NCBI GenBank assembly: GCA_902783545.1
Contig: CACZRD010000054.1
Coordinates: 2,171-66,170, forward strand
Source of the DNA: an uncultured Bacteroidales bacterium
GTDB taxonomy: Bacteria; Bacteroidota; Bacteroidia; Bacteroidales; Paludibacteraceae
Direction of reading: 5' to 3'
Length of the DNA stretch: 64,000 nucleotides
Position numbers and translations under genes: made by a program. Below are positions 44,969 to 55,669 of the stretch, one piece after another. The notes under the pieces were generated by a model. That model was not told the origin of the DNA and made no database searches. It saw only the letters and a list, made by a program, of their open reading frames with translations. Within the stretch, counting starts at the first letter, position 1. The number at the start of each line of letters is the position of its first letter.

Positions 44969-46283
44969 GAACCTCTACGCCCTGCGCGTTGTAGGTCTTG
45001 CCGTTCAGCTCGATGATCACTTGCCCGTTCACGATGCGCTTGGCAGCCTTGGTGGCAACAGCGGTATTCTCGATTGCGGTCGGAGCCGGCGAATCCGGCA
45101 GGGTGACCTCAGCGATCGGTTCGTTGATCATGATCTGCTTGATCACAACAGTCTTGTCGCTTGTCGTGGTGAGCTTCATGTAGCAGTCATAAGGTACGTT
45201 GGTGATCTCCAGCTTTCCAGCCACCTGAGTCCACTGGTCAGGCGTAATGGTCGCCTCTTCGCCGTTGGCGCTGACGATGACATTATCGCCTACGAATCCG
45301 AGTTTCAAGCGGATGGACGATCCTTGCTTGATCCACAATCCCACGAAAGCACCTGCTTTCTTGAGTTTCAAGCCCAAGTACGGTTCGTTACGAGCGGTCT
45401 TCTCATCGTTGAGCGAGTCGAGTTCGTTGATGTTCTCAAAATCAATATGAGCCGCTTGAAGCACTGCTTGGAAAGCCTGATTGTCCTTGCCGTTATCCAG
45501 TACCCACTGCTCGATGTTCACCGATGCACCGTACTCATAGTTCGTATCGAAGGTAGCGGAATAAGCGATAGTAACCTCTTTGGTCAATGCGCCGATAGTG
45601 AGGCTGACCTTGGTCGAACCGGCTTCAACGTCTGCTGTCGGAGCGAATCGGATTACCACCTTGGCATTGAGCTTGCCGTCCTCGCCTACCGTTACGCTTG
45701 CCGGATTAACGTACAGACCTGACAAATTAGGCACGACCAACGTATAGTTGCCGGCAGCCAGGTTCTTGCCGCTGAAGGTAACCTCAGCCTTCGGAGCCGG
45801 ATTAGCCGCAACAGCGTTGAGCTCAACGGACTCTTTATCTACGTTAAGTACGGGATCAGAAGTAATCTCCTCGTAGGTATATCCAAAGGTCTTCACTTTG
45901 AAGTCGTCTTCTGTGTAGAAATGCAGATACGGCTTGTTGTCATCACGTACCATGACGTCGGAAGAAGTGAAGCCAATCGTTGCGCCCTCTTTAGACATTA
46001 CCATCGCACGGCTTTCGTCTTTCACAGCGCCGCCGTTCTTATAGATATACAAGAAACGTGCTGCCTGATTGTCACTTGCCACAACGGTAAACGTACCCTC
46101 TACGTTTTCCGAAGGTAACTCCACATAAACGTGGGCTTTCTTGATGGCTTTCTTGTTCAAGTCTGCCGTAATGTACGAATTGCCGGTCTTTGTCATGTCG
46201 GACAAAGCGACTACAAAATCATCTGCTGCAAACATTGTCACTGCGAACAATGTTGCTGCGAAAAGGGAAAATAATTTTTGCAT
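44964..46283 (-). CDS. Secreted non-catalytic multi-module protein (beta-sandwich and Ig-like modules) with the short shared tail
   Basis: 439 aa with an SPI signal (LFAVTMFAADD) and no recognisable catalytic motif. The tail is KRIVNGQVIIELNGKTYNAQGVEVR. Confidence 0.75.
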   Translation of the reverse strand: MQKLFSLFAATLFAVTMFAADDFVVALSDMTKTGNSYITADLNKKAIKKAHVYVELPSENVEGTFTVVASDNQAARFLYIYKNGGAVKDESRAMVMSKEGATIGFTSSDVMVRDDNKPYLHFYTEDDFKVKTFGYTYEEITSDPVLNVDKESVELNAVAANPAPKAEVTFSGKNLAAGNYTLVVPNLSGLYVNPASVTVGEDGKLNAKVVIRFAPTADVEAGSTKVSLTIGALTKEVTIAYSATFDTNYEYGASVNIEQWVLDNGKDNQAFQAVLQAAHIDFENINELDSLNDEKTARNEPYLGLKLKKAGAFVGLWIKQGSSIRLKLGFVGDNVIVSANGEEATITPDQWTQVAGKLEITNVPYDCYMKLTTTSDKTVVIKQIMINEPIAEVTLPDSPAPTAIENTAVATKAAKRIVNGQVIIELNGKTYNAQGVEVR

Positions 46284-46363
46284 GATTTAAATAAATTTAG
46301 TTAATAATAGTGTTATCTTGAGATTACCTCATGTATTCTTTACTCCTTCACTCCTCTACTCCT

Positions 46364-47743
46364 TTACTCTTTCACTCCTTCCACCCTCACATTACTCAAG
46401 TAGATATACTTGCCGGAGCGCGGGGTTGCTTCGTCGTTGAGCCATGGCAGGATGCGGATATGCAACGTCTGTCCGGCAGGAACAGTGAGATGCGTAGGCA
46501 CAATCTTCACCGTTATCGGGGTGCGTTGCGGCATAGCAACCTTCTCGTAGAACGTGTGCACATCGGTGAAATTCTCGCCGAAACCCGTGTTGATGTGGCA
46601 ACTCATCGTTGACGTGCCTACTGCCGCCAGATCCATCATGATGCCGGCGATGCGCAGGGCAGAATCCGCGGGGGCGGTGACAGCCAGGTCGATATAGCGC
46701 ACGGCATTCTCATCGATCTCGTCAGCCGGCCACGGGGTCTTCGTCTTGCCGTTGTCGGAGTTGTGGAACCGCTGCATGCCGCCCTTGGTATCAGCGCAGA
46801 GGTTGCGCGTGGAGAGTTGATAGTTGAAAGCTGAAAGTTGAAAGTTCTCGGCTCTTGACTCTTGGCTCTCAACTCTTGACTCTTGGCTAATCTCCGGCAG
46901 CTCTGCCGGAATAGTGATATACTCCGCGAGAATTCCTGCCTCCTTGAGCAGCTCGGCTGCAAGGCGGGCAATCATCTTCGCTCCTAATTCCGAGGTGTGG
47001 GTCTTATCGCCCTGGCAGAACAGATTCGCCGTGCAGTACGCATCGCCGTATTGCAGGTACAGGTCATGCGTAGCAGTAGTCAGGTCGATATAGGGCACAT
47101 CCATCTGAGCCGCCACCTGGCGCATCTGCCAGACATAGTCCATCGAGTGGTCGTCGGCAGGAACGGACTGATTCTCCAGCAGCACCCCACCCTCTATCTT
47201 ATTGAACTTATCACCCAGATCGTGCTGACCATTACGGCGCAAGGTAACGGAGTCCACAAAGTACTTGCGGCATATAGGTCCTACTAACACGGGCGTACAC
47301 CCGAGCGCGCGTACCTCATCTATAAAACGGATGAGGTTAGCTTTGTAGGTCGTGTTCGGGCACGTGCCGCGCAGGTCGGTGAGAGCAGGCTGACCATTGG
47401 CTACGAGGTAGTCGTTGTATTCGAGGACATCCACGCCGTTGCATTTCTCGTCGTTGTGCGCAAACTGTATGAGCACGTAGTCACCGACGCTCATCTGCGT
47501 CTTCACTGACGGCCAGAGATTAGGCTGCTCGTAGAACGTACGCGTCGATGCGCCCGACTTGCCGCGGTTGTTGACAGTCACATAGGTCGAGTCGAAGAAC
47601 AGACCGAGGTACGTCCCCCACCCGCGTTTGTCCGTGGCGGAAGGTTTGTAGTCCGACATCGTGCTGTCGCCTATAGTGTGTACCTTGACGGCGCTCACCG
47701 GCAGACACAGCACCGCTGCCAATATGGTAAGGACTTTTTTCAT
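46364..47743 (-). CDS. CE12/SGNH rhamnogalacturonan acetylesterase fused to a C-terminal beta-sandwich domain through a repeat-encoded linker
   Basis: 459 aa with SGNH blocks GDSTMSDY, GKSGASTRTF and GDKTHTSELGA. The linker is SQESRVESQESRAENFQLSAFNYQLST. Confidence 0.8.
   Translation of the reverse strand: MKKVLTILAAVLCLPVSAVKVHTIGDSTMSDYKPSATDKRGWGTYLGLFFDSTYVTVNNRGKSGASTRTFYEQPNLWPSVKTQMSVGDYVLIQFAHNDEKCNGVDVLEYNDYLVANGQPALTDLRGTCPNTTYKANLIRFIDEVRALGCTPVLVGPICRKYFVDSVTLRRNGQHDLGDKFNKIEGGVLLENQSVPADDHSMDYVWQMRQVAAQMDVPYIDLTTATHDLYLQYGDAYCTANLFCQGDKTHTSELGAKMIARLAAELLKEAGILAEYITIPAELPEISQESRVESQESRAENFQLSAFNYQLSTRNLCADTKGGMQRFHNSDNGKTKTPWPADEIDENAVRYIDLAVTAPADSALRIAGIMMDLAAVGTSTMSCHINTGFGENFTDVHTFYEKVAMPQRTPITVKIVPTHLTVPAGQTLHIRILPWLNDEATPRSGKYIYLSNVRVEGVKE
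46816..46888. repeat. Two adjacent short-period arrays inside the CE12 gene, encoding the inter-domain linker
   Basis: gttgatagttgaaagctgaaagttgaaagtt, followed by ctcggctcttgactcttggctctcaactcttgactcttggct. Confidence 0.8.
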
Positions 47744-47776
47744 GGTAATGGTCTTAAATTGTCTTTAATAGTTGAC

Positions 47777-48145
47777 CTAAATAACCCTTCTTCTATAAAC
47801 GACAAATAGCAACGCCATCAGTAGCAGCGGGAGAGCGGCATCGCCGAGGGGCATCGGATCGGTTCCCGGATTAGGAGGTATTATACGGCGTGGGTTACGC
47901 GGCACATCTGTCGAGGTGCTACTGCCGCTACCGCCACCGTATATCGCTTTGCCGTCCGCATTCAATGAGGGGTTGAATGAGTGGGGACTGCCGCTTGGGG
48001 TCATACAGCTTGTGGAGCAGAACGCCGCAACAGGTGCCTTGACCGGAGCGAATGGGGTAGCAGTTGTACTCCATTGCGCCATGGCTGGCAGTGCGAACAC
48101 TGCCGCCATGATGATCACAATCGTTCTATTTATTCGGTGCCTCAT
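47777..48145 (-). CDS. Small secreted Gly/Ser/Pro-rich protein with a C-terminal motif + TM helix + Arg-cluster architecture
   Basis: 122 aa with a signal peptide (AVFALPAMAQW). The C-terminus is DPMPLGDAALPLLLMALLFVVYRRRVI. Confidence 0.6.
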   Translation of the reverse strand: MRHRINRTIVIIMAAVFALPAMAQWSTTATPFAPVKAPVAAFCSTSCMTPSGSPHSFNPSLNADGKAIYGGGSGSSTSTDVPRNPRRIIPPNPGTDPMPLGDAALPLLLMALLFVVYRRRVI

Positions 48146-48170
48146 AATTCATTGTCTTTCTGCGTTCAAC

Positions 48171-51100
48171 TTATTTAACCGTCACACCTGTCACGTCGTA
48201 CATCTGACCGTTGCGGATGATGAATACGTGATCGTTGATGACAATCTTGCGGACTGCGGACTGCTGACCTCTGCCAGTTGACAGATCAATACCCGTCGCC
48301 ACATGGTGTATCGGCGTGCGGCTGATGATGAACCGTGCCACCATATCCTCATCCGAAGCCATGAACATATAACGACTCTCTGAGCTGATCAGCGTCGATG
48401 TCTGCTCACGGAGGTCATTCAGATACCACGTGTTCTCGCCGTTGTACTCGAACGTGAAGGTATAGACGTCGTCCTCTGTACCTTTGCGGAACCCGAGCAC
48501 CGTGCCTTCCCAATCCGGTACGCAGTTCACTGCCATCTCGCCATCCGGCGTGATAGCGTAGAGTTGCGGTGCATAACTCTCGCCGAACAGCTTGCGACCG
48601 TCCCAGCCGTTCTCAAAGCCTTCGGTGAAATCCTCGCGCTCCCACATGTAGAGCATATCGCCGTAACCGTCTTCCGTACGTACGAACAGTCGCATCTTAT
48701 CCGCCTCGTCTTCCGATGCACCGGCACGCTTCGGAGCTTTGTTTGGTGTTGGCGTTGTACCTGCCAAAGCCGGAGCATATACGATTCTGTTGTAGTCCAG
48801 AGTTACCGAAGCAGTGTTGCCGGTAGTGAATACCGAGAACGACTGCATGGCGGGGATTAAGTCTGTCTCCTCACAGGTTCCTACGGTAGTTGTAATATAG
48901 TTACCGGCAAAACCTTCCTCTAAATAGGATGTACTATCCGTGGATTTGAAGATATAGATCGTTGCGTCTGCGTTGACGAAGTCGGTTGTCTGCATCGCTT
49001 TGATCTTAATCGGAGCCATCCATGAGTTAGCGAGCAGGTTCTCGTTGTTACCGTTGGCAGCGCCCGAACCGCTCTCCCAGTTCAGACCCGAGCACGTGTG
49101 GTTCTCGCTGGAAACGAGTGTTCCCTGCATCCAGTACGTGTGACCTGCGTCATTACCCCACGCATCAGCCGAGAATACGCAGTAGCCCTTGAACGGAGTC
49201 ATGCCATCGCCTTCATGCATGAGCTCCCAACCAATGACTTTATTATCGTAAACGATTTTATATACCCACGAGTTGTACCAGTTGTACAGGATGTTCGTCT
49301 CGTCGTTGAACGGCGTGCCGACATACTGGGCAACCGATGTTTCATTTTTCTTACCGGTTGACTTCGTGTAGAAGTTCACGGTTGCCTTGTTCTTGCCGTC
49401 GTGGCTACCCATGACGAGTGCACCCAGTCCGGCACCCGATGTCGAATTGAAGACTATATCATTCTCGCCTGTAGCGGTATAAGTGCTGCCGTTGGTGGTC
49501 TTGCATACCGTTCTGGAAACAACGAGTTCCTTGCCAGCATCCAGAATCAGTTGACCGGTGTTGCCGCTGTGCTGGTCAAGAACAACATCTGCTGCTTTCG
49601 CGTTCGTCACGTTTACTGCAACCGGTTTCTTGATTACCGCGCGATCAGCTATCGTCGGCAGACCGGCTCCACGACCTGTTGCGCCAATCCAATTGGTTGC
49701 TGTTCCCCAATTGCCATTCGTCTTGGCATCGTACAATACCACATCCGGACAAGTGTAACGTTTAACACGAACCCAGAAGATATCGTGGTTCTGTCCAACA
49801 TTGCCATTACGCATAATGAGCACTTTGTTATTGGTATTAAAACTTGCTGCTAATGCGCTAGTCAACGGGATTTCTATATCTACTGTTTGACTTGTAGTCA
49901 AATCTGTTTTTGACCAAACGGCATTACTTGTCGTCAAATCAGTACTATAGTCCGTATTGTGAATATATATGTACGATTGTTTTGTATATATCCTATAGAC
50001 TATTGTGTCGTTTTCTTTGAACGTATAGCCATTAGCTAAACCAAATAGCAAGTATTTGCCACTTCCTGTTAATTTGTAACATCCTGCCGGATCTTTATCG
50101 TCTTTTGGGCCCAAAACCACCGTTGCAGTTGCATTGGTTTTGTCCGCTTTCGTAGCTGAAGTTAAATCAACTTTAGCAATATAATTACTACCGCAATCCA
50201 TAGTTTTTACGGTAATATTGCATGAAACTGTATTTCCGCAGTGCGTACCATCCGCATCTATGGTTGCAGTAATAGTAGTTGTACCGTGTGCAACAGCAGT
50301 TACCACACCCGTGGACTCATTCACCGTTGCCGCATCTGTGTTACTGGAGCTATACGTTACACTTCCTGTGCTACCGTCCTTATTCAAGGTCGGAGTAGCC
50401 ACAGATTCACCTACCCAAATAGTTGTGTTATCATACGTCAGCGTCGGAGTGATAGGTGTACAATCTGCACAACCGGCTACAGAGATGGTGTTAAGCATCA
50501 CTTGGTCGGTACTTGCAACACGGCGAATTGTGAAACTGCTTGTTCCTTCTATGCCGTCGCCATCAGTTACTACATAACGCTGAGATATGCTGTTATTGGA
50601 GGTACTTGAAACAACGGTGGCAGGAGACATACTATTGCCGCTGACTTTCAAGCCATTCGTATGCGACGATGAAGATGCTGTTCCATAACTACCGATAACG
50701 ATGACCGTTCCTTCCTGCAACATGCCGCCAGAAAGATTAACTGTCAGCTCGTCATTATCATTATTAAATATCAAACCTTTGGCATTACCATTCAGACCCG
50801 CGGCATCCGTTCCGGTGTAAGTCAGCGTACCGCCTGTGATAGTACCGTTAATCATGCCACCAGCCGTAATAACTGTTCCGGCAGGCTGTCCGTCCGGCAT
50901 CGTTTTCTTCGACGCATCCGATACATTGAAGCACGGACTGCCCCAGGCGGCATAGAGGGTTGTCGCAGTTGAAGGCATCGTATAGGTTGCACCCGGTTGG
51001 TACATAGTGCCCGTACCGCTGCTGTTGGTATTCCATCCAAGGAATACATATCCGCTACGCGTCGGGATAGTACTGCTCAGCGTCGTACTACCCGGAGCGA

Positions 51101-53681
51101 CATACGATGAACCCGGTGCATCGCTTCCGCTGTTAGCGTTGTAACTTAACAGATGCTTGTTATCCACCGTCACGGTGATCATATTAGAATAAACTGGGTC
51201 ACCGCAGGTACCACTAACCTTCACCTTATAATAATACGTACCTGTGGACTTGGATGTTGTATAGGTAGTACTTGTCGCACCGGCTATCTCCGCTTCACCT
51301 GCACCGCCGGAACTCGTGTAACTGTACCACTTATAAGTCAGGCTTGCACCGGAAGCAACGAGATTCGTTCCAACGGTGAAACTCACGCCGTCATGTCCGG
51401 TAACACTCGTCGTTGGCTGTGTAGTTATCGTCGTCCCTGCATAAACGGTTGCGCTCTTGCTCGGCGTGCTTGCTGAATTGCTCCACTCGCCACAAGCGGT
51501 GTTTTTTGCACGCAGATACATGGTATAAGTGCCTGCGGAGGTAGATGTCGTATAATTACTGGAGGCTGGATAAGTGGTGCTTGTACCGTTTGCTGCCGTT
51601 TGCCAGTACCATGTGACGTAACTCGGCAGACCGGCTGTATTAGCACTGAACGTAACACCTGTTCCCGCACAACTCGAACTCGGCGTCACAGTGATCTTCG
51701 CTGCTGTCGGAGCGTCAGGAGTGATACAGTTCCATACTGCGAACAGTTCTGTATCGGCTGATATTGTGATGTCATCTCCTGCCTCATAATCCACTGTTCC
51801 GGATGACGCACGACTTGAACTTGTTGCCCAACCGGCAAACGTGTAACCGGTTCGCGTCGGCTCTGTAGCCGATATATATATCCTACGATGACTATCATCG
51901 CCTTCCGAAGCTACATATACTGCTGCCGGAGCGCCGCTACCGCTATTCGCATTATATGACAGCGTGTAAACCGGAACAAAGTGACAGCGCCAGTTGTCAT
52001 AACCGGTAGCATCTTGCCACATTCGGAAGAATCCTTTCGCACCGGCAGACAGCGTACTTACATTGCCGCCCCATGTATCCGTTGTTTTGTTATACGTACC
52101 CATCGAACCGACAGTCAGCGTATTACTCTTATACCAATACGCCACACCATCATCGGCTTTCAAGATTCCCACATAGTATTTATACGAAGATATCTGCTCA
52201 CTCGTCAAAGTTACCACCTCAGAAGTCCACTCGTTTTCATATCCCGAAGGATAGAATTTGACAGGACTCCAAGAAGAGCCATCCTTTCCCCAAATGAGAG
52301 AATACTGCTTCGGAGTAAACTCGATATAGAGGTTGTTGTATGTCGAATTATCATACACAAAGAATCGTGCCAATACACCTTGCGAACCGGTTCCTAACTT
52401 GACACTACGGTTACCTTTCAAGCATAAGTCCTCTAATCGCTCATTGGCAGAACTTGCACCGCTATTTCCTAAATCTCCGGTTTTCCACGAACCACCTTTA
52501 CCAACCCAGAAATTATTTGTACTTGTTTTGTAATTCGGAACCTCTAAATCCAATATTTGCATATCATCATAACCGGAATACGTAAAGTACTTCATCTGGT
52601 CACTCACGTTCAGGTTGTACATACTGATACAGTACGAACCACTGGTAGAAGCCGTGATCCATTGGGCATAGAGTGTGGTGTTAGCACTCAATGTAAATGA
52701 TTCCCACTCTTTATATTCCGTTCCACTACCATTAGCTTTTGTATTCCAGCACTTAAATATCTTGCCGGAAGGAGGAGTGAACGAGGTGTTTTGACTTGCA
52801 TGCACCGTTGTCTCGGAAATAAAGTCATGCGACGGCATACTGCCCGAACCACCATTCGCGTCATACGAAAGGGTGTACCAAGTCGGTGCAGCATTCACGG
52901 TCGTAAATGTACTACCCGTCAATGCTTTCCACGGACTTTTCTCTGTACTACTATATTTGCTACGCACCCAGCAGTAATAAGTTGTTCCATCGCTTAAACT
53001 TGTCAGCGTAGGCGTTTTACTCGTGAATGTTGCTGTTGCCGTTGAACTGGAAGTCGGGGCAGTACTTGCCGTGTTGTAATAGAACTCATAATTATTAGTA
53101 TTACCTCCGTCAGTTACCGTCATTGGGCAAGTCGTTTCTGTAGCAGTTCCTTTTGTCAACGCTGTCGGAGCGGTATAAACCTTAATGCTATTTACCCAGG
53201 TTTCCTTACCATCTTTCTCTATTCGCACATAGCGATATAGTGTGGAATTAAAAGTAACAGTTACAGTACTATACTTGTCATTTCCCAAAACATATATATT
53301 GTCTGTGCTTGTGCTAGTTGTACCTGTTCCTCCACTCACAGTAACACCAGATGACAATGTTGAATATGTTGAGCCATCAGTTGAGACAGTTACATTACAC
53401 GATTGAGTTGAACTTCCTGAGGAATTATAACACGCCGTAAAGACAATTTTGTAAATATTAGCCGTCGTACTTGTAATAGATGTCGGTTTTGAATCGACTT
53501 TCCATACTTTCGTACTTGCGGTACCGTTGAATGTTTTGCTTTGGATACTATTACTGGATGAAACAGTAATGTTATTTGTAGTAATAGAATTAGACGAAGG
53601 ACTTGTTATATTAAACGTCTGTCCCCACACTTGCCCTAAACCGAGGAAGAGAAGAATTGTTGCAAAAAATATTTTTTTCAT
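48171..53681 (-). CDS. Giant secreted multi-domain protein. It has three Listeria-Bacteroides-type repeats, Ig-like and Big_2-like domains, several beta-sandwich modules and the short shared tail. No catalytic motif was recognised.
   Basis: 1836 aa with an SPI signal (LGLGQVWGQT). Repeats: YTLSYDANGGSGSMPS, YTLSYNANSGSGAPAA and LLSYNANSGSDAPGSS. Big_2-like segment: ATVNESTGVVTAVAHGTTTITATI. Tail: KIVINDHVFIIRNGQMYDVTGVTVK. Confidence 0.8.
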   Translation of the reverse strand: MKKIFFATILLFLGLGQVWGQTFNITSPSSNSITTNNITVSSSNSIQSKTFNGTASTKVWKVDSKPTSITSTTANIYKIVFTACYNSSGSSTQSCNVTVSTDGSTYSTLSSGVTVSGGTGTTSTSTDNIYVLGNDKYSTVTVTFNSTLYRYVRIEKDGKETWVNSIKVYTAPTALTKGTATETTCPMTVTDGGNTNNYEFYYNTASTAPTSSSTATATFTSKTPTLTSLSDGTTYYCWVRSKYSSTEKSPWKALTGSTFTTVNAAPTWYTLSYDANGGSGSMPSHDFISETTVHASQNTSFTPPSGKIFKCWNTKANGSGTEYKEWESFTLSANTTLYAQWITASTSGSYCISMYNLNVSDQMKYFTYSGYDDMQILDLEVPNYKTSTNNFWVGKGGSWKTGDLGNSGASSANERLEDLCLKGNRSVKLGTGSQGVLARFFVYDNSTYNNLYIEFTPKQYSLIWGKDGSSWSPVKFYPSGYENEWTSEVVTLTSEQISSYKYYVGILKADDGVAYWYKSNTLTVGSMGTYNKTTDTWGGNVSTLSAGAKGFFRMWQDATGYDNWRCHFVPVYTLSYNANSGSGAPAAVYVASEGDDSHRRIYISATEPTRTGYTFAGWATSSSRASSGTVDYEAGDDITISADTELFAVWNCITPDAPTAAKITVTPSSSCAGTGVTFSANTAGLPSYVTWYWQTAANGTSTTYPASSNYTTSTSAGTYTMYLRAKNTACGEWSNSASTPSKSATVYAGTTITTQPTTSVTGHDGVSFTVGTNLVASGASLTYKWYSYTSSGGAGEAEIAGATSTTYTTSKSTGTYYYKVKVSGTCGDPVYSNMITVTVDNKHLLSYNANSGSDAPGSSYVAPGSTTLSSTIPTRSGYVFLGWNTNSSGTGTMYQPGATYTMPSTATTLYAAWGSPCFNVSDASKKTMPDGQPAGTVITAGGMINGTITGGTLTYTGTDAAGLNGNAKGLIFNNDNDELTVNLSGGMLQEGTVIVIGSYGTASSSSHTNGLKVSGNSMSPATVVSSTSNNSISQRYVVTDGDGIEGTSSFTIRRVASTDQVMLNTISVAGCADCTPITPTLTYDNTTIWVGESVATPTLNKDGSTGSVTYSSSNTDAATVNESTGVVTAVAHGTTTITATIDADGTHCGNTVSCNITVKTMDCGSNYIAKVDLTSATKADKTNATATVVLGPKDDKDPAGCYKLTGSGKYLLFGLANGYTFKENDTIVYRIYTKQSYIYIHNTDYSTDLTTSNAVWSKTDLTTSQTVDIEIPLTSALAASFNTNNKVLIMRNGNVGQNHDIFWVRVKRYTCPDVVLYDAKTNGNWGTATNWIGATGRGAGLPTIADRAVIKKPVAVNVTNAKAADVVLDQHSGNTGQLILDAGKELVVSRTVCKTTNGSTYTATGENDIVFNSTSGAGLGALVMGSHDGKNKATVNFYTKSTGKKNETSVAQYVGTPFNDETNILYNWYNSWVYKIVYDNKVIGWELMHEGDGMTPFKGYCVFSADAWGNDAGHTYWMQGTLVSSENHTCSGLNWESGSGAANGNNENLLANSWMAPIKIKAMQTTDFVNADATIYIFKSTDSTSYLEEGFAGNYITTTVGTCEETDLIPAMQSFSVFTTGNTASVTLDYNRIVYAPALAGTTPTPNKAPKRAGASEDEADKMRLFVRTEDGYGDMLYMWEREDFTEGFENGWDGRKLFGESYAPQLYAITPDGEMAVNCVPDWEGTVLGFRKGTEDDVYTFTFEYNGENTWYLNDLREQTSTLISSESRYMFMASDEDMVARFIISRTPIHHVATGIDLSTGRGQQSAVRKIVINDHVFIIRNGQMYDVTGVTVK

Positions 53682-53698
53682 GATAGTTATGTGTTACG

Positions 53699-53735
53699 TA
53701 ATTCGATCAGCAGTTACTTAATTCGATCAGCAGTT
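53699..53735. repeat. Direct repeat of a 17-mer (TAATTCGATCAGCAGTT x2, 20-bp register) just upstream of the giant gene start
   Basis: Read directly at 53699-53715 and 53719-53735. Confidence 0.8.
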
Positions 53736-53806
53736 TTACTTAACCTCGCAGCCGAGGGCGTTACTGGTTGTGCCGTTGCGAGTGATGCAGTTGGCCACCG
53801 AGGGCG

Positions 53807-55669
53807 TTAGAACTTGTTGAAACGCAGCGCGCCGTCCGTGCTGACAGCGATATACGTGCCGGCAGGCAGATGATCAACAGCGATTGTCTCGCGGGTGGTT
53901 GTACCTGCGCAAGCGCCGCTGATAGCGTATACACGGATCACTTTGCGTGCGGGGTTATACAGAACATTGCCGCGGAACGACAGCGTGTTGTCGGTAACCA
54001 TAGCCGTTGATGTGATCGTTGAAGAATGATCATCGATGCCGAAGATGCTCTGGAGCGAACTTGTATAGTTCACAATGAGGTTCGACAACTCAGTGCTGAT
54101 ATTGTAGTCGGCGGGAGCGAAGTTAGCGAGGCTGAAATCAATATCGCTGTGGAACATACGACCTGCGCCATGCGTGCCGGTCACGATCTCAGGGATATTA
54201 TTGGGATCATCGGGCGTGATTGCCGGCATCACAGACGAATTGGTATCGAAGTTGTCATATTTCGAACCACCAAGCTTGGCGGTTACGTTTGACGGCACTT
54301 GCTCGTCACGAGTCTGTGCCAGATAAGCATCGAAATGAACCGGATTCTTGTCCGCATCATAATACGACATCTCGATAGTACGTGTTCCGGCATAGACATT
54401 ATTGAACGCTTTGATAATGCCACCGTTTTCTTTCGAGAATGTCGGAGCATCGCTTTCGTCCGTACCGTTCTTAGTGTCCGTACCTTGCATCGAAATCAGC
54501 ATCGGATGCGAGCAGTTGAGGAAGTAGTTATTCTCTACAAATACCGACGAACCGGTTGTGGCACCTACGCAGTATTTAGCTACGCCATCGAAATAGTTAT
54601 TGAATACGTGCACCGACATCGTACGAACACGCGGATGACGGGAGTCGGAGTGGTCGAACCAGTTGTGGTGATAGGTGATATAGTTGGGACCACTCTCACT
54701 CTTCATACCGCACAGATGCGACTTGCCGGTATCCCAGAGGTGGCAATACGAAACCGTTACATATTTCGAATCGCTCTTCACATCAATAGCACCATCGCCT
54801 TTGGCCTTATCTCCACTACCCTTCTTGCCATAGAACACATCCAAGTGATGCAACCAGATATTGCTGTTATCGGTATCGAGCGAAACGCCATCGTCCATGC
54901 AGGACATGATAGCCAGATTGCGGATCTCTACACTCTTACTGTTACGAACCAAGAATCCGAATCCACGAATCGTTGCATCGTTACCAACGCCCTCGATAGT
55001 CATATTCAGCACGGCATCGGCATTCTTACCTTTGATCTGTACACCTTCCGCCGAACTGCCGAACTCATCCATATCGCTTGCCTGCAGCAGACCCAGGATA
55101 CGAACGTCCAACGGACGCGTCTCATTGCCCTTCTGATAGCCGGTAATGATAGCCTGAATACCTGTACAAGTAGTCTTGGGCTTGCCTGATTTCTCTACTT
55201 GAATATCCATCGAGATAGTCTTGGCGTTACCCTTGTGAACATACAGCACGATCGTGCCGTCCTTCAACATACCATTGTCCTTGTACGCACCTACGCCCTG
55301 AGTCCAGTTGCTATGCGCAAAACCACGCCGGTCGTGAGCACGAACAGTGAGAATATCGGTCTCACTGGCTTCGCTTTCCACATCAGCATTGTCCTTGACA
55401 GGCACAACCTTCAGCTGATACTTGCCGGCGTAAAGACCTAATGCGTCAGCGCGGCAATAGTCGCCGTAGCTACGCAGCAATGGCTTGTCAAGCACGGTAT
55501 AGCTGCCGCCCTCGGGACGGACATATACGTTGTAATCCGAATAACCGCTCAGAGCTGTCCACTCAACGAAAGCACTCTCCAACCAGCCCTCAGCACTCTT
55601 GATTTGTACTGCGGCATTAGCACTCAGACAAGAAAAGAAGATAATGGTAAACACCAAGAATTTTTTCAT
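53807..55669 (-). CDS. PL1 pectate lyase with an N-terminal Fn3-like domain and a longer C-terminal region resembling a T9SS-type sorting domain
   Basis: 620 aa with motifs IWLHHLDVFYG, DGAIDVK and SRHPRVR. The C-terminus is ...VIRVYAISGACAGTTTRETIAVDHLPAGTYIAVSTDGALRFNKF. Confidence 0.8.
   Translation of the reverse strand: MKKFLVFTIIFFSCLSANAAVQIKSAEGWLESAFVEWTALSGYSDYNVYVRPEGGSYTVLDKPLLRSYGDYCRADALGLYAGKYQLKVVPVKDNADVESEASETDILTVRAHDRRGFAHSNWTQGVGAYKDNGMLKDGTIVLYVHKGNAKTISMDIQVEKSGKPKTTCTGIQAIITGYQKGNETRPLDVRILGLLQASDMDEFGSSAEGVQIKGKNADAVLNMTIEGVGNDATIRGFGFLVRNSKSVEIRNLAIMSCMDDGVSLDTDNSNIWLHHLDVFYGKKGSGDKAKGDGAIDVKSDSKYVTVSYCHLWDTGKSHLCGMKSESGPNYITYHHNWFDHSDSRHPRVRTMSVHVFNNYFDGVAKYCVGATTGSSVFVENNYFLNCSHPMLISMQGTDTKNGTDESDAPTFSKENGGIIKAFNNVYAGTRTIEMSYYDADKNPVHFDAYLAQTRDEQVPSNVTAKLGGSKYDNFDTNSSVMPAITPDDPNNIPEIVTGTHGAGRMFHSDIDFSLANFAPADYNISTELSNLIVNYTSSLQSIFGIDDHSSTITSTAMVTDNTLSFRGNVLYNPARKVIRVYAISGACAGTTTRETIAVDHLPAGTYIAVSTDGALRFNKF

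Follow-up and report, generated by a model that had tools for sequence, protein, structure and literature searches.

[quoted passage not shown] In the PGF-CTERM/archaeosortase A (ArtA) system, the C-terminal helix of the substrate is removed and the new C terminus is joined to a lipid-type moiety. The same outcome is described for GlyGly-CTERM/rhombosortase (cited in PMC7468200). In the exosortase model, the substrate is cut near its motif, the helix is left in the inner membrane, and the new C terminus is joined to a carrier, which for PEP-CTERM/exosortase is unknown (PMC7468200). Within the Bacteroidota, biofilm formation is abolished in F. johnsoniae when xrtF is mutated, just as it is when the T9SS attachment components PorU and PorZ are lost, and the substrates of Bacteroidota exosortases are stated to be unknown (PMC10936215). 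This was the only functional study on a Bacteroidota exosortase found in the literature that we searched, which made no mention of PID-CTERM or XrtX, a system curated in databases (NF046080/NF046081).

Here, we compare these systems with a small gene that lies directly behind a giant surface-protein gene in a 64-kb window (the whole stretch of DNA that was analyzed). When the comparisons below are taken together, its product is probably a Sec-exported, disordered protein that carries a divergent, PID-CTERM-type signal of the exosortase class and acts as the cassette partner of the giant. The features of the locus are as follows:

47777..48145, minus strand: small gene, 122 aa plus stop, encoding a predicted signal peptide, a disordered Pro/Ser/Thr/Gly-rich part and a putative C-terminal sorting signal.
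48074..48145, minus strand: predicted signal peptide, residues 1 to 24 (MRHRINRTIVIIMAAVFALPAMA, followed by Q), from sequence reading, hydropathy and a predicted helix at residues 2 to 22.
48008..48022, minus strand: F-x-S-T-S motif, residues 42 to 46, with F42, S44, T45 and S46 invariant in alignment A1 of the homologues.
47885..47893, minus strand: P-R-R, residues 85 to 87, 13 residues N-terminal of P-L-G-D, with R86 invariant in alignments A1 and A2.
47780..47851, minus strand: putative tripartite sorting signal, residues 99 to 122 (P-L-G-D, helix AALPLLLMALLFVVY, RRRVI), from the conserved alignment, hhalign and the A4 profile.
48171..53681, minus strand: giant surface protein, 1836 aa, with Flg_new (Listeria-Bacteroides) repeats and a Big_2 domain.
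48249..48773, minus strand: beta-sandwich domain with linker, N-terminal to the giant's tail (...YMFMASDEDMVARFIISRTP...), from alignment A6 and AlphaFold2 (AF2); the small partner correlates with this domain.
48174..48248, minus strand: 25-aa C-terminal tail of the giant, KIVINDHVFIIRNGQMYDVTGVTVK, common to ~54 proteins in the source genome.

The 122-aa ORF, which translates as MRHRINRTIVIIMAAVFALPAMAQWSTT...GGGSGSSTSTDVPRNPRRIIPPNPGTDPMPLGDAALPLLLMALLFVVYRRRVI, is confirmed as it stood in a preliminary description of this DNA: a signal peptide, a low-complexity part, P-L-G-D, a helix and RRRVI follow one another, and the gene is separated by 25 bp from the stop of the 1836-aa gene and by 33 bp from the start of a GDSL/CE12 esterase gene (46364..47743). 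Hydropathy and AF2 agree with this layout. The only hydrophobic segments are residues 5 to 25 and 98 to 119, and AF2, given an alignment of 12 sequences, predicted helices at residues 2 to 22 and 104 to 121 with no order between them (mean pLDDT, 56.6). Because the model consists of two helices and disorder, a fold comparison was ruled out. In the predicted signal peptide, cleavage would fall after an A-x-A site (A-M-A) and leave Gln in position +1, and ALPAMAQ is kept across alignment A1. From the cleavage site to the motif there are 78 residues, among them 13 Pro, 11 Ser, 8 Thr and 8 Gly. F-x-S-T-S is present in 17/17 proteins of the own-genus subfamily, 15 of which also carry a dibasic P-R-[RK] 13 to 25 residues before P-x-G-D. 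The P-R-R of the small protein may be a processing or recognition site, and the two ectodomain motifs hint at either a specific interaction or an additional step of processing. A promoter and terminator scan of positions 46200 to 54200 returned fewer sites than shuffled sequence and none in either intergenic gap; the empty 25-bp and 33-bp gaps are compatible, as weak evidence, with co-transcription of the small gene with its neighbors.

A short, low-complexity ORF such as this could be a chance open frame between two genuine genes, and neither Pfam nor NCBIfam returned a significant match for the small protein or for six longer relatives. Against the curated sorting-domain models, the sole match of the small protein was MYXO-CTERM, at an E value of 4.1. 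Conservation refutes this explanation, whose probability we consider negligible. A word-indexed search returned 11 homologues of 35 to 93% identity and the same layout, all of them metagenomic and without names, which have in common a signal peptide, F-x-S-T-S...S-G-S, P-R-[RK] and P-[LIV]-G-D-A-A-L-P-L-L-L followed by R-R. The source genome (1.92 Mb in 149 contigs, 78% complete) holds 7 paralogues, on contigs C54 (the window), C124, C48, C36, C2, C149 and C90. Among 1.84 billion representatives, the family profile matched 1203 clusters (at 50% identity) with an E value of ≤1e-3 and 384 with an E value of ≤1e-10, and most of the 1203 clusters are 100 to 170 aa long and matched over their full length. 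Since the homologues, paralogues and clusters exceed what chance would give, and since the conserved motifs persist down to 35% identity and the gene order described below is kept, the small gene is a genuine conserved gene.

It belongs to a large family of small secreted proteins with a sortase-type tail that are encoded behind giant surface-protein genes. None of the small-family proteins tested matched Pfam and none reached an NCBIfam cut-off, which leaves an annotation gap of ~1200 clusters at 50% identity with neither a name nor a domain. The preliminary description had proposed looking through the proteome for the same ending; it is shared by the 7 paralogues in the source genome and by dozens of proteins in related genera. 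It had also named a motif that does not recur, with no syntenic homologues, as grounds for giving up its reading; the motif does recur, and homologues do occupy syntenic loci. The A2 profile additionally matched the N-terminal regions of ORFs of 1900 to 2500 aa at L033, L060 and L061 (G343:C31, G314:C2 and G330:C25), which look like low-complexity false positives or fusions.

All 7 paralogues in the source genome lie on the same strand as, and 1 to 55 nt downstream of, a gene for a large tail-tagged protein. Five of these large proteins are complete, at 1450 to 2962 aa, and two run off their contigs after no fewer than 490 and 2390 aa, respectively. A small partner accompanies 6/6 tail proteins that have the beta-sandwich motif versus 1/48 that do not, so the small partner tracks the beta-sandwich domain and not the tail. 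Three other long tail-tagged proteins with assembled downstream DNA have no small partner, and the same is true of the pectin enzymes. The small protein had been put forward in the preliminary description as a membrane anchor or partner for the tail-tagged proteins as a group. For the adjacent giant this proposal held, but it failed for the other tail-tagged enzymes: 47 of the 54 tail proteins have no small neighbor, which is found only beside giants, and a role as partner of all tail-tagged proteins was rejected.

The same pairing is found beyond the source genome. Homologues P0010 and P0012 are each encoded immediately behind a giant that has Flg_new repeats (2303 and 3053 aa, respectively), in the company of toxin-antitoxin and ATPase genes and no pectin genes. 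Because homologous pairs occupy unrelated neighborhoods, the pectin setting of the pair in the window is incidental. The giant-then-small order is seen at loci L001 to L005 and L024 to L026, three genome records repeat it, and the whole window arrangement is repeated in a red-deer Paludibacteraceae MAG. Among 40 relatives' loci, which cover more than 20 genera within the family, 26 have a small or medium protein after a large T9SS-domain or tail protein, the upstream protein having a type-A C-terminal domain in 21 cases and a short tail in 5; about a third of the 40 loci have no obvious cargo gene upstream. The preliminary description had suggested a check of synteny; homologues do sit beside giant repeat proteins in related genomes, and giant and small gene form a conserved two-gene cassette in which the small gene comes second. 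One locus (L026:861-10923) encodes a giant, a small protein and a second giant of 1242 aa with no second small gene. The second giant has the same domain before its tail and the same tail as the first, and one small protein may serve two giants here.

Of the described systems, the SprF/PorP partners (sprB-sprF) are like this cassette in gene order, with a dedicated partner encoded directly 3' of a giant T9SS adhesin gene and a pair that duplicates as a unit. They differ in the partner itself and in the cargo, as the small protein here is disordered with one helix, whereas SprF and PorP are barrels, and the cargo upstream has a type-A domain or a short tail.

At its C terminus, the giant has a tail of ~25 aa that is found on ~54 ORFs genome-wide, for example at positions 34781-, 36636-, 40757-, 43751- and 44964- of the window. 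Before it lies a beta-sandwich of ~130 aa with the consensus ...GFENGWDG...EGTVxGFRxG...YTFTFEY...WYLNDL...Y.F...ARFIISxTP, which ends in Y-x-[FLVI]-x5-18-[RK]-[FY]-x-[ILV]. For the last 200 residues of the giant, AF2 gave a moderate beta-sandwich at residues 26 to 151 of that segment (pLDDT, 62.6), and a Foldseek comparison of this C-terminal model with the PDB returned nothing at an E value of ≤0.001. The 1836-aa giant did not match the model of the T9SS type-A C-terminal domain (TIGR04183). Its tail, however, aligns weakly to the first, N-terminal strands of that domain (hhalign P = 4.6e-4, probability 33%) in the pattern 'i..nG.L.I.n....v.vYD..GR.v', and the alignment ends where the second half of the domain would start. 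Relatives' giants carry a full type-A domain at the place of the short tail, and the tail may be a truncated T9SS C-terminal domain. The source genome encodes SprA, a PorU-like C25 peptidase and 9 true type-A C-terminal domains.

When 43 family members from more than 20 genera were aligned on the motif, only the C-terminal layout proved to be conserved: an acidic/Pro run, P-[LIV]-G-[DEGNS], a helix of ~18 residues (xxxLLLxAxxY), a K/R cluster and the end of the protein. The N-terminal parts, 60 to 230 residues long, are of low complexity and mutually unrelated. A conserved C terminus behind variable N-terminal parts is the pattern expected of a sorting signal. Below the curated thresholds, family members match JDVT-, PID-, MYXO-, PEP- and IPTL-CTERM and LPXTG models. 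The preliminary description had called the architecture PEP-CTERM-like, but there is no P-E-P motif in the family and only 1/41 members matches PEP-CTERM (TIGR02595), at an E value of 0.22. The closest catalogued signal is that of PID-CTERM (NF046080), which gave 22 bits for a same-genus relative and 17.2 bits for the best-scoring paralogue of the source genome (contig C2), against a cut-off of 26 bits, and which is matched by only 1/41 family members; the window protein itself had no match to NF046080 at an E value of ≤10 and does not reach the cut-off of 26 bits.

The tripartite signal and the N-terminal signal peptide of PID-CTERM proteins are nevertheless both present in the small protein and its family. 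A search of 201 Bacteroidales genomes from 148 families with a profile of the C terminus (A4) matched 40 genomes, and the matches outside the own family are mini-proteins of 70 to 100 aa, in which a signal peptide and a Pro/Gly stub lead into A-P-[IV]-G-[GS]-G or P-I-D-G-G, with a helix and then a cluster of Lys behind it. NF046080 is matched by 8/10 of these mini-proteins, two of them above the cut-off (30.8 and 35.6 bits), and in 13/16 fetched loci from other families the mini-protein is encoded directly after a protein with a T9SS C-terminal domain. By hhalign, the family and the PID-CTERM mini-proteins align in register over 33 columns (probability 97.5%, P = 6.7e-12; reversed control, 0.8%), the mini-protein set having itself been retrieved with A4. 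One locus (L086:6491-6982, in G070) has two tandem PID-CTERM mini-protein genes, of 73 and 75 aa, behind a single T9SS cargo gene; one product has A-P-L-D-G-G and the other A-P-V-G-E-G, a D/G-E variation within one locus.

The likeness to PID-CTERM/exosortase X covers a signal peptide, a motif that begins with Pro, a small/hydrophobic helix with a conserved Tyr, a terminal basic cluster, co-occurrence with an XrtX-like enzyme and a location downstream of T9SS cargo genes. There are also differences. The motif here is P-[LIV]-G-[DE] and not P-I-D-G-G or A-P-I-G-G-G, the helix is Leu-rich and not Gly-rich, and the mature part has ~75 to 230 residues with conserved motifs of its own in place of a 10- to 25-residue Pro/Gly stub, while both signal and enzyme fall below the curated cut-offs and the enzyme gene is unlinked. 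In common with PEP-CTERM/exosortase (EpsH, XrtA), the family has a tripartite signal and low-complexity substrates rich in Ser, Thr and Gly, with many of them to one enzyme, and this enzyme belongs to the same superfamily (by the TIGR04178 signature), but the genomic link here is to T9SS cargo genes and not to an exopolysaccharide locus. These sequence comparisons support the reading of the small protein's C terminus as a divergent PID-CTERM-type sorting signal of the exosortase class. The family is a divergent variant of a database-catalogued system and stands out by a genuine ectodomain and by how strictly it is paired with giant adhesins.

No sortase-like gene is found within the 64-kb window, as the preliminary description had said, and its suggestion of searching the genome for processing enzymes led to a single exosortase-family gene outside the window (C8:1569-2129, 186 aa). 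With 68.1 bits for TIGR04178 (cut-off, 23) and a score above the cut-off for PF09721 (34.8 bits), the candidate enzyme is placed by its sequence signature in the exosortase/archaeosortase superfamily, and an alignment of 5 enzymes keeps the Cys, N-x-x-R and His columns. Where an XrtF-like enzyme had been suggested as one option, the best subtype is instead XrtX (NF046081), at 83.7 bits and far below the cut-off of 170, compared with 54 bits for XrtF (cut-off, 90). The XrtX cut-off of 170 bits was reached in 0/201 Bacteroidales genomes, the best score being 135.7 bits. NF046082, the XrtX-associated membrane protein, had no match in the 78%-complete source genome or in any control genome. In the own family, the exosortase gene adjoins tsaD, the only conserved gene beside it, and is linked to neither the proposed substrates nor a partner gene. 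In the source genome, it is convergent with the gene of a tail-tagged protein (G000:C8:145-2129; 416 aa visible, ...KFFENGQLFIRRGDVIYTIQGVRVK). A generic scan of this genome for a C-terminal helix followed by a basic cluster returned mostly polytopic membrane proteins, and no other motif recurred among the matches.

The signal and the enzyme tend to occur together. Of the 151 genomes in a family-level sample, 113 have the enzyme and 46 the small family; 44 of these 46 have both. Among six genera without the enzyme, the small family was not detected in five, and in the sixth the match is doubtful (E = 9.4e-4). At the level of the order (201 Bacteroidales genomes, 148 families), 37 genomes have both signal and enzyme, 3 the signal only, 54 the enzyme only and 107 neither; in other words, 37/40 signal-positive genomes have the enzyme and 3/110 enzyme-negative genomes have the signal (Fisher's exact P = 4e-12, a value that overstates the support because the genomes are related). 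Two of the three signal-only exceptions are weak matches or fragmented genomes. As 54/91 exosortase-positive genomes have no detectable signal, the exosortase may have other substrates. Occasionally, the two genes are neighbors: the order T9SS cargo, mini-protein, exosortase is found in G083, G107 and G110, which represent three different families, and in G136 and G070 the exosortase gene lies ~5 kb downstream of the mini-protein gene on the same strand. The conserved layout, the co-occurrence with the enzyme and the adjacency in three families bear out the earlier suggestion that the C terminus is a sorting signal, and the preliminary interpretation as a whole is partly supported.

These distributions also bear on which enzyme would act on the signal. 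Another intramembrane enzyme, either a rhomboid or a CPBP/Rce1-type protease as in the JDVT-CTERM/MYXO-CTERM systems, might process it, and four family members do show weak matches to JDVT-CTERM (best E = 0.0018), others matching MYXO-CTERM or GlyGly-CTERM. A rhomboid gene is present in the source genome (contig C32), but it is uninformative because rhomboids are universal, being found in 14/14 control genomes, and no CPBP/Rce1-like gene was found in the 78%-complete source genome. Adjacency and co-occurrence both favor an exosortase, and we consider processing by one of these other enzymes very unlikely.

An alternative that deserves more weight, though still an unlikely one in our judgment, is that the small protein is an uncleaved, bitopic inner-membrane protein whose helix is a permanent anchor and whose disordered periplasmic part would tether the giant, or act as its chaperone, en route to the type IX translocon. 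The signal peptide, C-terminal helix and cytoplasmic Arg cluster would fit a type I membrane protein, F-x-S-T-S and P-R-R suggest a function beyond sorting, and no curated sorting model is reached. A permanent anchor, however, leaves unexplained why P-[LIV]-G-[DE], immediately outside the helix, is conserved better than anything else among ectodomains that are otherwise unrelated, why the signal hardly occurs in genomes that lack an exosortase, and why it is also carried by mini-proteins that have almost no ectodomain and are encoded beside the enzyme gene.

For the preferred reading, that of an exosortase-class signal on a partner of the giant, a mechanism can be proposed because of the analogy to PEP-CTERM/exosortase, PGF-CTERM/ArtA and GlyGly-CTERM/rhombosortase; the latter two have other motifs, enzymes and taxa and serve as a model for the mechanism only. 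After export, the C-terminal helix would hold the small protein in the inner membrane, where the XrtX-like exosortase encoded on contig C8 would cut at or near P-L-G-D. By the same analogy, the enzyme would then transfer the peptide of ~75 residues onto a lipid or glycan carrier that would bring it to the cell surface. The giant, an adhesin-like protein, would be exported to the surface by type IX secretion or by a route derived from it, and the small peptide would most likely work together with this one giant, be it as a dedicated anchor at the surface, as a spacer or as a partner in assembly. We infer the cleavage, the attached moiety, the final location and the contact with the giant from these parallels.

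More tentatively, the exosortase-processed peptide could be a dedicated surface anchor or acceptor, covalent or not, for the neighboring giant T9SS-type adhesin, by which two surface-attachment systems would be coupled; we regard this as a possibility worth naming and not as the expected outcome. If it is true, every giant would come with an anchor of its own, and the exosortases of Bacteroidota would assist type IX secretion as accessory factors; the coupling would also account for the likeness of xrtF mutants to porU and porZ mutants. In the gut and rumen Paludibacteraceae, where such pairs are found with giants inside polysaccharide-degrading loci, the small family provides concrete candidate exosortase substrates with real ectodomains, each paired genetically with one giant adhesin. 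It raises the question of whether exosortase sorting and type IX secretion cooperate in building the cell surface, and it points to a link between these two bacterial surface-attachment systems.
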